From positions 864 through 17,960 of the forward strand of contig CAYZRS010000059.1 of assembly GCA_964480915.1 (NCBI GenBank): a DNA stretch of 17,097 nt, read 5' to 3'. The first letter of the stretch is position 1, and each line of letters starts with the position of its first letter. The stretch is from an uncultured Pirellulaceae bacterium. GTDB taxonomy: Bacteria; Planctomycetota; Planctomycetia; Pirellulales; Pirellulaceae. The translations under genes were made by a program, and so were the position numbers. Below the pieces are notes generated by a model. That model was not told the DNA's origin. It did not search any database and saw only the letters and a program-made list of their open reading frames with translations. Shown here piece by piece: positions 3,360 to 9,613 of this stretch.

Positions 3360-3560
3360 AGGGCACCTCTCATCACAAGGGCTGGGCTGGCTGGGACGCG
3401 CAGGCAAAACGGAGCGTCGCCGAGTCGCACCGCGCGTTACAAACTCTCTGGGCACAAGCAACGGCACAGTACGCTCGGCAAAACGCTGAGACACTAGATG
3501 CACGTTCTGCCCAAGGGTGCCGCAGAAAAACTGGAATTTCCGAATTTTGTGCCAGCCGAT

Positions 3561-3649: not shown

Positions 3650-4249
3650 ATGGACAGTTCGGTTCAATTCGCCGAACTTGTTTCCAAGGCCCGCCAAGGT
3701 GACGCATCGGCGCTGGATGCGATCTTTCGCACCTGTCGCGATTACCTGTTGCTGATCGCGAATCAAGAAATGGACGAACGGTTGAAGACGACCTGTGCCG
3801 CCAGTGACTTGGTCCAAGCGACGCTCGTCCAGGCGAATCACAAGTTCGACCAGTTTCGCGGCGATTGTCAGCCAGAATTCCTCGGCTGGGTGAAAGCGAT
3901 CTTGAAGAATGAGATGAAGGGTTCTGTTCGCAAACACTTCCAAACCGAAAAACGAGCCGCCCCACTGCCGCGACCAACCGGCGTTTCCTCTTGGCTGGCC
4001 GGTTCGGCGACTCATCCTATCGACCCAGAACTAACGCCGGCGGCAGGAGCCGAATTGGAAGAAGATGCTCAGTTGCTAAGGCTGGCCATTTTACGACTTT
4101 CGGAAGATCATCGTGAGGTATTGTTACTGCGTAACTGGCAACGTCGTTCCTTCGCGGAGATCGCCATCGAAATGCAACGCACGGAAAACGCGGCGAAGAA
4201 ACTCTGGGCTCGTGCCTTGGTGGCATTAGGAAACGAGATGTGCGAATGA
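3650..4249 (+). CDS. ECF (sigma-70 family) RNA polymerase sigma factor of the Planctomycete Ser/Thr-kinase-associated type
   Basis: A sigma-70 region 2-like N-terminus ([35 protein letters not shown]...[18 protein letters not shown]). A region 4-like helix-turn-helix ([42 protein letters not shown]). Alternative starts are ATG 3632 and TTG 3575; 3650 is preferred because it has an AAGGGGG purine tract just upstream. The stop TGA at 4247-4249 overlaps the kinase ATG (ATGA). Confidence 0.8.
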
Positions 4250-5634
4250 CGGATCGAAAGCCTATCAGCCACCGTGTCGACGACGCGACCGAATTGGATT
4301 CGGCGATCGACCTGCTCGTTCAACTGGACGAAACCGAAGACGCGACAGATTCTACGGCGGTTACGGATTCTCTTGCCAAGCACACGCCGGCCGGGGCCGA
4401 CGACTTGCGCCGAGCAGCCAATAGCCTGCAACGGTTGAAACGCATTAAACAACAAAGTCCGTACTGCGTTGTCGACTTGGCATACGGATACGGTTCCTCG
4501 GTGGATGATGCCGAGTTGCCGTCACGAATTGGTCGTTTCGAGATCAAGCGTCGGCTGGGCATGGGTGGCTTTGGCGTCGTCTTTCTGGCAAACGACCCAA
4601 CGATTGATCGCGACGTCGCCCTCAAGGTGCCTCGGGTCGAAGCGCTGATCAATGAGGAGACTCGCGGCCGCTTCGTACGCGAATCGCGCACGGCCGCTAT
4701 GGTTTCGCATCCGCATGTCGCCACCGTCTTCGAGGCTGGGATGGTCGGACCGATCTGCTATATCGTTTCCGAATACTGCCCAGGTGGGTCGATTGCCGAC
4801 ATGCTCTCGCAATTGCCTGAAAACCGGTTGCCGGCAAAAGCGGCCAGCCAAGTCATGGCCACCGTCGCGGATGCCGTCCAAGCAGCTCATGACCAAGGCG
4901 TTCTCCATCGCGACATCAAACCGACCAACCTGTTGCTCGACGTGACCGCAGACCAAGTGCCCCGCTTCATCGAAGACCCGTCCGAACTGTACGCGTGTGT
5001 GAAGCTGGTCGACTTTGGCCTAGCAAAAGATTTGACGCGAGACGAGGCGCGAACGCGCACCGGCATGTTGCTCGGCACACCGGCCTACAGTGCTCCGGAG
5101 CAAATAGCCGAAACTAGGACGCTGGGCGCCACGACCGATGTCTATTCCTTGGGCGCCACGCTCTACCACCTCATCACCGGGCAGCCGCCACTGCAAAAGG
5201 CGACCGATTTCGCAACGCTGCTCGCCAATCAGAACGAAGAACCCCAACTCCCCCAGTCTCATCACTTGGACATTCCGAAAGACCTCAGCGCCATCTGCAT
5301 GAAGTGCCTAGAGAAGACGCCCGAGCGCCGCTACGCAACGGCCGCGGAATTGGCGGACGACCTAAGACGGTTTATTGCAGGCAAGCCGGTCGTGGCGCGA
5401 AACATCTCGACTTTGGGACGATGGTCACGCTCGGTTCGTCGCAACTCGGTACTGGCCATTTGCGCTGCGATCACCCTGTTCTCGATCGCTTTCTCCGTGC
5501 AAACCGTACGCGTCTCGCAACGGGCAATCGAAAGAGAGAAAATCAAGCAGTCGAGTCTGATTCGTGAGATTGAATTGCTTAACTCACGCCGCGAGAGGAA
5601 TCCGACGCAGCTCGATTCCGATCGCCGCGACTAG
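4246..5634 (+). CDS. Hanks-type serine/threonine protein kinase, membrane-anchored by one C-terminal TM helix, translationally coupled to the ECF sigma factor
   Basis: ATG at 4246 overlaps the sigma stop codon (GTG 4240 is an alternative start). Kinase motifs: glycine loop GMGGFGVV, VALK, catalytic loop HRDIKPTN, DFG and SAPE. The TM helix is VLAICAAITLFSIAFSV, followed by a roughly 45-aa charged tail. An acidic roughly 90-aa N-terminal extension precedes the kinase domain. Confidence 0.85.
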   Translation: MTDRKPISHRVDDATELDSAIDLLVQLDETEDATDSTAVTDSLAKHTPAGADDLRRAANSLQRLKRIKQQSPYCVVDLAYGYGSSVDDAELPSRIGRFEIKRRLGMGGFGVVFLANDPTIDRDVALKVPRVEALINEETRGRFVRESRTAAMVSHPHVATVFEAGMVGPICYIVSEYCPGGSIADMLSQLPENRLPAKAASQVMATVADAVQAAHDQGVLHRDIKPTNLLLDVTADQVPRFIEDPSELYACVKLVDFGLAKDLTRDEARTRTGMLLGTPAYSAPEQIAETRTLGATTDVYSLGATLYHLITGQPPLQKATDFATLLANQNEEPQLPQSHHLDIPKDLSAICMKCLEKTPERRYATAAELADDLRRFIAGKPVVARNISTLGRWSRSVRRNSVLAICAAITLFSIAFSVQTVRVSQRAIEREKIKQSSLIREIELLNSRRERNPTQLDSDRRD

Positions 5635-6254
5635 CTCCCTTCCATTCGTGGCTCCGTTGACCCCGTTGGCACTGCGGTCGGCACCTGGCAATGGGAACCT
5701 TCAAAAAAGTCAGCCGACTCGATTCCGAACGCGTGATCGAATCGAGCTCGCCAATTTTCCCAGGCGATAGACGCCGTCAATTCGACCATCTGTTTTTCGT
5801 TGAAGCTTTGCTGGAGTCGCGCGAAATTTGCGGCGTCGATTTCGACCGGCGTATTCGTCATTTCGGTCGAGTAACGCAAGACCGCTTTATCGATCTCGTC
5901 GAAGAGGGAGCTCGTTTCGAAATCGTTAAGCTCGCGCAGCTCCTCGTCGCTGAGCACGTTTTCGTGGCGGCTCACGGCCGCCATCATGTCGATTCAGAAG
6001 GGACAACCGACCATGCGTGCGACACGCGTTTGAGCCAGATACTTATACCGCGGTGAAACCGACTTGGCCGCTTCCTGGGCCGAATCCATCTGACCAATGC
6101 CCAGCAGCACTCGTGGGTGATGCGCCATGATCGTGATCGGTTCGATCAATTCGGCGCGCCCCGTCAGCTTGCCAATTTTGCGCTTCACGATCGCGTACAC
6201 AATCCGAGTAAAGAGGCCGGCCTTGTTGACGTCGATCCCTGCCATACGTGGCAT
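5631..6254 (-). CDS. Carboxymuconolactone decarboxylase / AhpD-like family protein with an in-frame TGA at 5994-5996; probable selenocysteine-containing (C-x-x-U) peroxidase-related protein of 207 aa
   Basis: Two minus-strand ORFs (5994..6254 and 5631..5987) are in the same frame and are separated only by TGA plus Ile-Asp. ATG at 6254 has GGAG 9 nt upstream. The joined protein aligns co-linearly with the CMD/AhpD fold: the N-terminal part ends RVARMVGCPF, then U, then IDMMAAVSRHENVLSDEELRELNDFETSSLFDEIDKAVLRYSTEMT...ELTASIAWENWRARFDHAFG. The TGA falls exactly where the second Cys of the family's G-C-x-x-C redox motif sits. A SECIS-like hairpin starts 11 nt downstream. The stop TAG at 5631-5633 overlaps the kinase stop. 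Confidence 0.65.
5965..5983 (-). other. Putative bacterial SECIS element (hairpin immediately 3' of the in-frame UGA)
   Basis: The mRNA reads UGA-AUCGACAUGA-U GGCGGC CGUGA GCCGCC A. It has a 6-7-bp GC stem and a 5-nt apical loop containing GU. The stem begins 11 nt after the UGA, and the loop G is about 19 nt after it. Confidence 0.5.
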
Positions 6255-6465
6255 AGTTCAAAGCTCCTGGAAAAGTTGTTTCTATCGATGAAACTGCAAT
6301 CGCCGCACCGCTTTAACCGCGGGACTGCTCAATCGAGTGAGCGGTAAGGCGCTAAACGCCGGTATTTTGGGGAACGCGCCGACCTTGTCGCTCACAGAAA
6401 ACGGAAGGGATGTCCCGATTGAGCCGAATTGGCCTCAACCGCGAAAATCAACAATCTCACTTTGC

Positions 6466-8657: not shown

Positions 8658-9613
8658 GAGGGATCGCTCGCATAGTGGACCCAGCCGCGTGAGCTGCGAA
8701 ACAGCAATCCGGTGGCGATCACCAACAAGGCGAAGACCATCCAGGCCATCGCCGACGCGTAACCCATATCCAGATCTTGGAAGGCGGATAAGAAAAGGTG
8801 CAACGACAACACCAACGTCGATTGCTGCGGAGCGCCCGTCCCTTCGCTGACAATGTACATCTGCGTGAAGGCTTGGACCGATTGTATGAGCCCCATCACC
8901 AGGTTGAAAAGAATCACTGGGGTCAGCAACGGCAGCGTCACGTGGCGGAAGCGGCTCCAGCGGGAAGCGCCATCGATGGCGGCCGCTTCATGCATTTCAT
9001 CGGGCACATCGGCAATCGCCGCCAAGTAGATCAACATGAAATTCCCGACCGACCACAAAGACATCAAGATCAGCGCATCTTTTGATCCGAACGCTGCCGT
9101 CCCATGAAGCCACCCCAGCGGCCAAGCTGCCTCACCCGGTTCGTTGAACCACAGCGGACCAGGCAAGCCCATCGATTGGAGCACATGGTTCACCATGCCG
9201 CGACGTGAGTCCAACAACCAGACCCAGAGGATCGACGAGGCAACGACCGGAATAATACTTGGTAAGAAACAAAGCGTGCGATAGACCGCCTGCCCCCTGA
9301 CTTTCCAAGACAAGATCGTGGCCAGCCCAATCCCAAGCAGGATAGAAAGCGGCACGTGAATCAGTGCAAAGTAACCGGTGTTCCAGAGCGCCCTGCCAAA
9401 ACCTTGTCCCGTCGCCAATTCGTGTCCAAGCCGTTGGTAATGCTGCAGTCCCACGAATTCCGGTGCTGACAACAAGTCATATCGACAGAAGCTCCACCAC
9501 AACGAACAAACAAAGGGAACGAAAACCAAGAACAAGAATCCAACCAGCCAGGGACTCATGAAGAGCAGCCCCGTAATCCATTGCCGATGACGCCGATTCC
9601 TGGTCAATTTCAT
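8654..9613 (-). CDS. Carbohydrate ABC transporter permease (MalF-like inner-membrane component)
   Basis: ATG at 9613 (MKLTRNRRHRQWITGLLFMSPWLVGFLF...) is preferred. The ORF-track start at 9649 is a TTG. The EAA loop reads EAAAIDGASRWSRFRHVTLPLLTPV. The stop overlaps the substrate-binding-protein start (ATGA at 8654-8657). Confidence 0.85.
   Translation of the reverse strand: MKLTRNRRHRQWITGLLFMSPWLVGFLFLVFVPFVCSLWWSFCRYDLLSAPEFVGLQHYQRLGHELATGQGFGRALWNTGYFALIHVPLSILLGIGLATILSWKVRGQAVYRTLCFLPSIIPVVASSILWVWLLDSRRGMVNHVLQSMGLPGPLWFNEPGEAAWPLGWLHGTAAFGSKDALILMSLWSVGNFMLIYLAAIADVPDEMHEAAAIDGASRWSRFRHVTLPLLTPVILFNLVMGLIQSVQAFTQMYIVSEGTGAPQQSTLVLSLHLFLSAFQDLDMGYASAMAWMVFALLVIATGLLFRSSRGWVHYASDPS

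Follow-up and report, generated by a model that had tools for sequence, protein, structure and literature searches.

AhpD-like (COG2128) selenoproteins with a CxxU motif, where U is selenocysteine (Sec), were described in 2005 in a survey of the Sargasso Sea (PMC1088965), and AhpD-like 1 and 2 were among the most abundant families of the Global Ocean Sampling (GOS) survey (PMC2398784). A 2026 review lists an "AhpD-like protein" (TIGR01926) and a "CMD-like protein" (PF02627) as selenoproteins (PMC13188914), and AhpD-like selenoproteins are also listed in BSepDB. Here we describe a gene of this kind in a 17,097-nucleotide stretch of DNA from an uncultured Pirellulaceae bacterium (assembly GCA_964480915.1, contig CAYZRS010000059.1, positions 864 to 17,960), which we refer to in its entirety as the window. 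Comparison of the sequence with that of its relatives leads us to conclude, with high confidence, that 5631..6254 on the minus strand is one AhpD-like gene whose in-frame UGA encodes Sec. The initial annotation of the window stated that AhpD-like selenoproteins were already known, and the three publications cited above bear this out; because CxxU proteins of this type have been described since 2005, the finding extends a known kind of selenoprotein.

Two minus-strand open reading frames (ORFs) are called at the locus, 5994..6254 (86 amino acids and a TGA) and 5631..5987. As the initial annotation had pointed out, they lie in the same frame, and only TGA (5996..5994), ATC and GAC stand between them. 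Read through the TGA, the frame extends from an ATG at 6254..6252 over 207 codons, including Sec87, to a TAG at 5633..5631, with no further stops or frameshifts; the peptide across the junction is V-G-C84-P-F-[UGA87]-I-D-M-M-A-A-V-S-R. Full-length homologues start with MPRI... or MARI..., like the MPRMAGIDV of this gene, and we therefore place the start at ATG 6254 and not at 6245, the start used in the predictions of the Joint Genome Institute (JGI). A Shine-Dalgarno-like AGGAG can be read at 6264..6268(-), 9 nt upstream of the ATG. Five JGI contigs of the source population, assembled independently and differing by three single-nucleotide polymorphisms, all have the TGA, which is thus not an assembly error.

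For profile searches, Cys was written at the TGA position of the joined protein. The joined protein passes the Pfam carboxymuconolactone decarboxylase (CMD) model PF02627 (26.3 bits, cut-off 23, E = 7.7e-6), in keeping with the earlier assignment of both halves to the AhpD/CMD family, and the JGI name for the fragments is "alkylhydroperoxidase family enzyme." The best curated model was NCBIfam NF053654 ("GroundWater_YciW: YciW-related (seleno)protein"), in which residues 1-182 matched profile positions 1-175 of 179 (E = 1.9e-29). The NF053654 cut-off of 310 bits was reached neither by the protein of this gene (102.7 bits) nor by five relatives (58-134 bits), and the same was true of the 81.8-bit cut-off of TIGR01926 (peroxidase-related enzyme), with 29.1 bits for the gene's protein and 25-33 bits for relatives. 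Judged by these profile scores, the clade appears to be a sister lineage of NF053654 and no member of it.

By sequence, the nearest solved structures are the debrominase Bmp8 (6ohi, E = 1.2e-7, residues 40-175) and Atu0492 (2gmy). GCPF[U] aligns with GCMYC of Bmp8 and GCAFC of Atu0492, which places the UGA (5994..5996) on the second Cys of both proteins and makes C84-P85-F86-U87, at 5994..6005(-), a CxxU redox motif. C84 is invariant in the alignment, and the flanking peptide G-C-P-F-U-I-D-I-G-S-A-V is almost invariant among orthologues. The His found in AhpD-type proteins four residues after the second Cys (His137 in Mycobacterium tuberculosis AhpD) is not present: Met91, which aligns with the His of Atu0492 (GCAFCVDMH), occupies the position here and Gly does so in most orthologues, and the Cys forms of the clade are also without it. 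Both assignments, the TGA at the second motif Cys and Met at the His position, had been made in the initial annotation. The fold was modelled with AlphaFold2 on a natural Cys orthologue, P0004, which is 44% identical (predicted local distance difference test score, pLDDT, 85.5). The top Foldseek matches of this model were all AhpD/CMD proteins, namely, Bmp8, PA0269 AhpD, Atu0492, and Deinococcus radiodurans AhpD, so the fold agrees with the family assignment. The protein is AhpD-like, of the COG2128 type, with a CxxU center and without the canonical His. Another Cys, Cys189 (5688..5690(-)), lies in a C-terminal EGxxCxxP motif and is invariant in forms with Sec and with Cys, distant actinobacterial homologues among them. 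In the P0004 model it belongs to the C-terminal tail (pLDDT about 50-60), and the alignments suggest it as a candidate third redox residue.

Orthologous loci were collected by scanning one-genome-per-species contigs and metagenomes, each of which gave more than 540 confirmed matches; of the 599 candidate stretches from the genomes, at least 566 code for relatives. Among the matches listed there were 160 loci, and the site was located in 153 of them, with TGA in 150, TGC in two, and TCA in one. The TGC loci (L039 and L085) belong to Singulisphaera sp. PoT and to a Rubrobacterales metagenome-assembled genome (MAG). Genome loci come from Planctomycetota (Pirellulaceae, Gemmataceae, Isosphaeraceae, and Phycisphaerae) and Acidobacteriota (Bryobacterales, Terriglobales, Sulfotelmatobacter, and Acidoferrum), and further orthologous loci were found in soil metagenomes; the clade is one of soil and groundwater. 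Across soil Acidobacteriota and Planctomycetota, this AhpD-like lineage has been kept almost exclusively as the Sec form. The closest locus among the matches listed, at 57% identity, is from a Pirellulaceae MAG, which agrees with the presence of a planctomycete-type DUF1559/N_methyl gene in the window. Orthologues align across the TGA, over residues 1-183 to 1-207, and the most conserved block is in the C-terminal half, after the UGA (QMVELT..IAWEN.RARF, plus Cys189). CxxC stands at the site in P0004, P0005, and P0022-P0028, and more distant homologues have it as well. A protein search returned few full-length homologues and many entries of 113-122 amino acids that begin just after the stop.

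Two of the loci deserve separate mention. A groundwater Planctomycetota MAG (L034) contains two tandem paralogues with TGA at 9573 and 10241, both followed by the hairpin, and with the peptides GCPF*IDINSAVG and GCPF*IDIGSAVG. In a Terriglobia MAG (L079:10253-10255), TCA (Ser) replaces TGA and the full hairpin is kept; the Ser codon reflects a very recent change from Sec or, alternatively, an error in sequencing or in the consensus.

Downstream of the UGA the mRNA reads AUCGACAUGAU-GGCGGC-CGUGA-GCCGCC-A. A GC-rich hairpin with a GU-containing loop had been predicted 11 nt after the UGA, and a 6-bp stem with a 5-nt loop was indeed found at 5982..5966(-), the stem beginning 11 nt past the UGA. 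An additional pair, U14-A32 (5983/5965), lengthens the stem to 7 bp, such that the whole selenocysteine insertion sequence (SECIS)-type hairpin occupies 5965..5983(-), with the 5' arm at 5983..5977 (U-GGCGGC), the loop at 5976..5972 (CGUGA), and the 3' arm at 5971..5965 (GCCGCC-A). The same arms were obtained in the minimum free energy and centroid folds, and the hairpin alone has a folding energy of -13.3 kcal/mol. G22 and U23, counted from the U of the UGA, are in the loop, and this G and U are at least 90% conserved among orthologues.

We aligned the 51 nt surrounding the UGA in the window with the corresponding stretch of 144 distinct TGA orthologues, and the resulting alignment of 145 sequences was gapless. 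Unprompted, RNAalifold paired columns 21-26 with 32-37, giving a stem of 6 bp and a loop of 5 nt, which is the hairpin of the window; the hairpin follows the UGA at a constant distance in every TGA form. Pairs 23-35, 25-33, and 26-32 are essentially invariant; pair 22-36 is UA in 122 sequences, UG in 20, and GC in one; pair 24-34 is UA in 140, GC in four, and CG in one, with none broken; and pair 21-37 is UA in 36, GC in 35, and CG in 26. The covariation score was 0.132, compared with 0.053 in shuffles (0 of 500 shuffles reached it), and exceeded that of all slid registers. The window itself has GCG...CGC (Ala...Arg) for the consensus UCU...AGA (Ser...Arg): two U-A pairs have both become G-C, and the helix is preserved.

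Synonymous sites are likewise frozen, and only within the stem. Of 142 Ser codons at +5, 138 are TCT, and of 144 Arg codons at +9, 140 are AGA or AGG, CGN being used only when the partner base changes too; codon +8 invariably ends in C. Unlike these stem sites, Gly+4, Gly+12, and Pro-2 use all four codons. No such helix was present in the three Cys forms whose DNA was read (L039, L085, and P0005). The initial annotation had suggested comparing codon and hairpin across orthologues, and the outcome was TGA in 150 of 153 loci, Cys in two, and a hairpin conserved in register with compensatory changes. A gapless alignment of 145 sequences with compensatory changes inside a coding region also constitutes a useful SECIS profile for both phyla.

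A covariance model of the element, which had likewise been suggested, was built from the 144 orthologues with the window left out. Its top match in the window was 5952-6002(-), with 30.9 bits, an E value of 4.5e-7, and all pairs standard. A sequence-only model scored 17.2 bits, so the structure adds about 14 bits. The second-best match in the window, at 3504-3541(+), scored 12.9 bits (E about 0.02). This hairpin, GUUCUGCC-[10 nt]-GCAGAA, has the family-consensus stem sequence and is intergenic, between the divergent DUF1559/N_methyl gene and a gene for an extracytoplasmic function (ECF) sigma factor, with no UGA upstream; the match is probably due to chance.

Genes for Sec insertion were sought in all collected loci by tblastn, using Escherichia coli SelD, SelA, and SelB queries. 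In seven acidobacterial loci (L010, L029, L036, L045, L047, L069, and L075), a homologue of selB, full-length in each case, is encoded at a distance of 1-4 kb from the orthologue. It was confirmed as TIGR00475 in both loci that were scanned, L045 and L075 (362 and 388 bits, cut-off 242), and was identified in the other five by full-length tblastn matches. In L045 (7057-8964) and L075 (6388-8298), selB is on the same strand as the selenoprotein gene, with one gene between them. The SelA query gave no match in the collected loci, and no selA or selD was found near the selB-linked acidobacterial orthologues. The apparent SelD matches proved to be ThiL (TIGR01379) and were discarded. An ARAGORN scan gave no tRNA for the window and, over the 1.67 Mb of collected loci, no tRNA-Sec. 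Complete Sec-insertion gene sets have been reported in several Planctomycetes (PMC4807772).

Several observations weigh against the conclusion that the UGA encodes Sec. Neither the window nor about 10 kb more of its contig (L169-L171) contains selA, selB, selD, or a tRNA-Sec. Taken alone, the hairpin of the window is only mildly unusual, with a fold z-score of -0.85 in a 61-nt context and -2.0 in 42 nt, and 8 of the 509 TGA triplets in the window have a perfect 6-bp hairpin that begins 8-14 nt past the triplet; the significance of the hairpin therefore lies in its conservation and covariation across orthologues and not in the single sequence. A search of Rfam produced no SECIS or other relevant family, either for the window at the gathering score or for 5850-6100 at an E value of up to 10. 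To our knowledge Rfam has no general bacterial SECIS model, and this miss thus weighs little. In addition, the catalytic analogy to AhpD is incomplete, since the AhpD His at +4 is missing from the family.

With these points in mind, we considered whether the locus could be a nonsense pseudogene, in which a Cys codon (TGC or TGT) has mutated to TGA and either an 86-residue fragment or nothing is made. A single substitution separates TGA from TGC or TGT, the JGI annotation has two products of 83 and 118 amino acids (the split that the initial annotation had expected from ORF-based gene calling), and Sec genes were not found in the window or in the additional 10 kb or so of contig. However, the same mutation would be needed in 150 of 153 orthologues of two phyla, and these loci differ at 40-55% of residues and so are not artifacts of one contaminant. 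Amino acid conservation is strong past the TGA, with no other stops or frameshifts; the TGA forms have a conserved, covarying hairpin, and the Cys forms that were read have none; and the TGA is stable across five population variants. A nonsense mutation is, in our judgment, extremely unlikely, and the preference for Sec recoding already expressed in the initial annotation is upheld by the codon count, the covarying hairpin, and the linkage of selB in the seven acidobacterial loci. Translation through the UGA could also occur without selenium, if the codon were decoded by a near-cognate tRNA for Trp, Cys, or Arg or had been reassigned in the lineage, and the hairpin would then be a generic stimulator of read-through, as hairpins past stop codons can be in other systems. 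Three public proteins predicted by JGI (P0002, P0003, and P0006) carry Trp at the Sec position, which raised the question of genetic-code reassignment. The DNA of P0003 (L166:245-820) has TGA at the site, however, and the Trp is thus a gene-calling artifact, short contigs having been called with a code in which TGA is Trp. TGA is also the ordinary stop of three neighboring genes in the window, where Trp is encoded by TGG, so the code is not reassigned there, and together these observations rule out reassignment. Furthermore, the site aligns with a redox Cys and not with Trp, the register of the hairpin and its G-U loop match the SelB-binding fdhF element, and selB is linked in seven genomes. 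We consider selenium-free read-through very improbable.

It could be argued, finally, that there are two genes, encoding N-terminal (86 amino acids) and C-terminal (118 amino acids) proteins that together form a split AhpD fold, as an ATG (Met90, 5987) follows close behind the stop in the window. In orthologues, however, the codons after the TGA are ATC/ATT-GAC-ATC-GGN, with Ile at +1 in 127 of 145, and mostly include no start; this is why gene callers place the start of the second "gene" variably, at one internal Met or Val codon or another. The stop always coincides exactly with the position of the catalytic Cys, and termination there would destroy the CxxC center; full-length single-chain Cys homologues exist (P0004, P0005, and L039). 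The probability that we assign to two separate genes is close to nil. The source organism, a Pirellulaceae-like planctomycete, very probably uses selenocysteine.

From these comparisons we infer how Sec might be inserted in the source organism and how the enzyme might work. As the ribosome nears the UGA, a complex of SelB, GTP, and Sec-tRNA(Sec) would bind the hairpin 11 nt downstream and bring Sec to the ribosome ahead of termination by release factor 2, and Sec87 would be inserted. The predicted product is a 207-residue thiol-selenol oxidoreductase with a C84-P-F-U87 center. Cys133 is the nucleophile of M. tuberculosis AhpD; by analogy with this second motif position, Sec87 would be the attacking nucleophile. 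The adduct would then be resolved by Cys84, with formation of an intramolecular selenenylsulfide that a cellular reductant would recycle, and Cys189 may join in recycling. Candidate substrates are a peroxiredoxin partner, a peroxide, or another electrophile.

The clade might instead represent a functionally distinct selenoenzyme and not an AhpC-recycling AhpD, given that it is widespread, that almost all of the loci analyzed are Sec forms, and that it lacks the AhpD His and has an extra invariant C-terminal Cys. Such an enzyme could reduce peroxides or electrophiles on its own, or could act as a reductive dehalogenase like Bmp8, which would be a bacterial analogue of deiodinase chemistry; in soil Acidobacteriota and Planctomycetota it might perhaps also be one of the main selenoproteins through which the Sec trait, with selB linked, is maintained. 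We regard this proposal as speculative and rather unlikely. No ahpC or peroxiredoxin gene is among the neighbors in the window.

The selenoprotein gene is located 211 nt after an operon for an ATP-binding cassette (ABC) transporter and converges on a gene for a Ser/Thr kinase (4246..5634(+)). The two convergent genes overlap by 4 nt (5631-5634), where a palindromic CTAG provides the TAG stop of both, and the kinase gene shares a further 4 nt (4246-4249) with the ECF sigma-factor gene upstream of it. This neighborhood is not conserved in the relatives P0009, P0011, and P0005. In the extended source contig, a 762-amino-acid APH/aminotransferase fusion gene is intact in one assembly and divided into 594 and 161 amino acids in another (L169:2338-4626 versus L170:2357-4626); the split is a population frameshift or an assembly difference.

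Once the UGA is read as Sec, a complete redox enzyme is recovered from sequences that are at present stored incorrectly. The gene and hundreds of orthologues appear in three wrong forms: as two hypothetical fragments, as C-terminal stubs, and with a spurious Trp in the active site. Apart from the Trp-containing predictions, most public entries are stubs of 113-122 amino acids, and the gene tables of the P0009 and P0011 contigs show the same split, a small ORF followed by a fragment. What is known of Sec decoding and of AhpD-like selenoproteins in general is unchanged. Three aspects are mildly new: the clade is a large lineage of Acidobacteriota and Planctomycetota from soil and groundwater; it exists almost wholly in the Sec form; and no curated NCBIfam model captures it above threshold, with gene callers systematically splitting or mistranslating it.

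Bmp8 (6ohi, 6ohj) is the closest solved structure by both sequence and fold, with a template modeling (TM) score of about 0.70. Its length, about 190 residues, is similar to that of the protein described here, and it too has an N-terminal extension before the CMD core; identity is only 22-23%, however, and Bmp8 has Cys where Sec is found here. Bmp8 sits in a bromopyrrole biosynthetic cluster, and nothing in the window suggests halometabolite chemistry. The AhpD-like proteins PA0269 (7xw1, 2ijc), Atu0492 (2gmy), and D. radiodurans AhpD (6k40) share the all-helical CMD fold, with CxxC at the same helix N terminus (Foldseek E values of 8e-6 to 5e-4), and M. tuberculosis AhpD (1knc, 1gu9) is a weak Foldseek match (E about 0.4-1).

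For the RNA element, the comparison is with the SECIS of E. coli fdhF; the fdhF query sequence was 100% identical to fdhF in at least 5,413 E. coli records. The fdhF-like geometry that the initial annotation described is evident, in that both hairpins lie within coding sequence with the stem about 11 nt after the UGA, and U18-G19-C20 occupy the same positions in the family consensus stem and in fdhF. The apical loop comprises nt 21-25 here and nt 22-25 in fdhF, with the G-U at 22-23 and 23-24, respectively; the loop is thus 5 nt long (C/G-G-U-N-N), compared with the 4-nt GGUC of fdhF. Unlike fdhF, the hairpin has neither a bulged U17 nor a long lower stem, and binding of SelB to it is predicted.

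Among protein families, NF053654 resembles the clade in having selenoprotein members and in matching end to end, but the clade scores far below its cut-off. The published AhpD-like families were defined mainly from marine metagenomes and a few Firmicutes and Deltaproteobacteria, whereas the clade described here is from soil and groundwater Acidobacteriota and Planctomycetota and stays well under the TIGR01926 cut-off. In other respects the published AhpD-like CxxU selenoproteins are like this one: they belong to the same fold family, carry Sec at the second position of the motif, have Cys homologues, and have a SECIS hairpin with a small G-containing loop right after the UGA.

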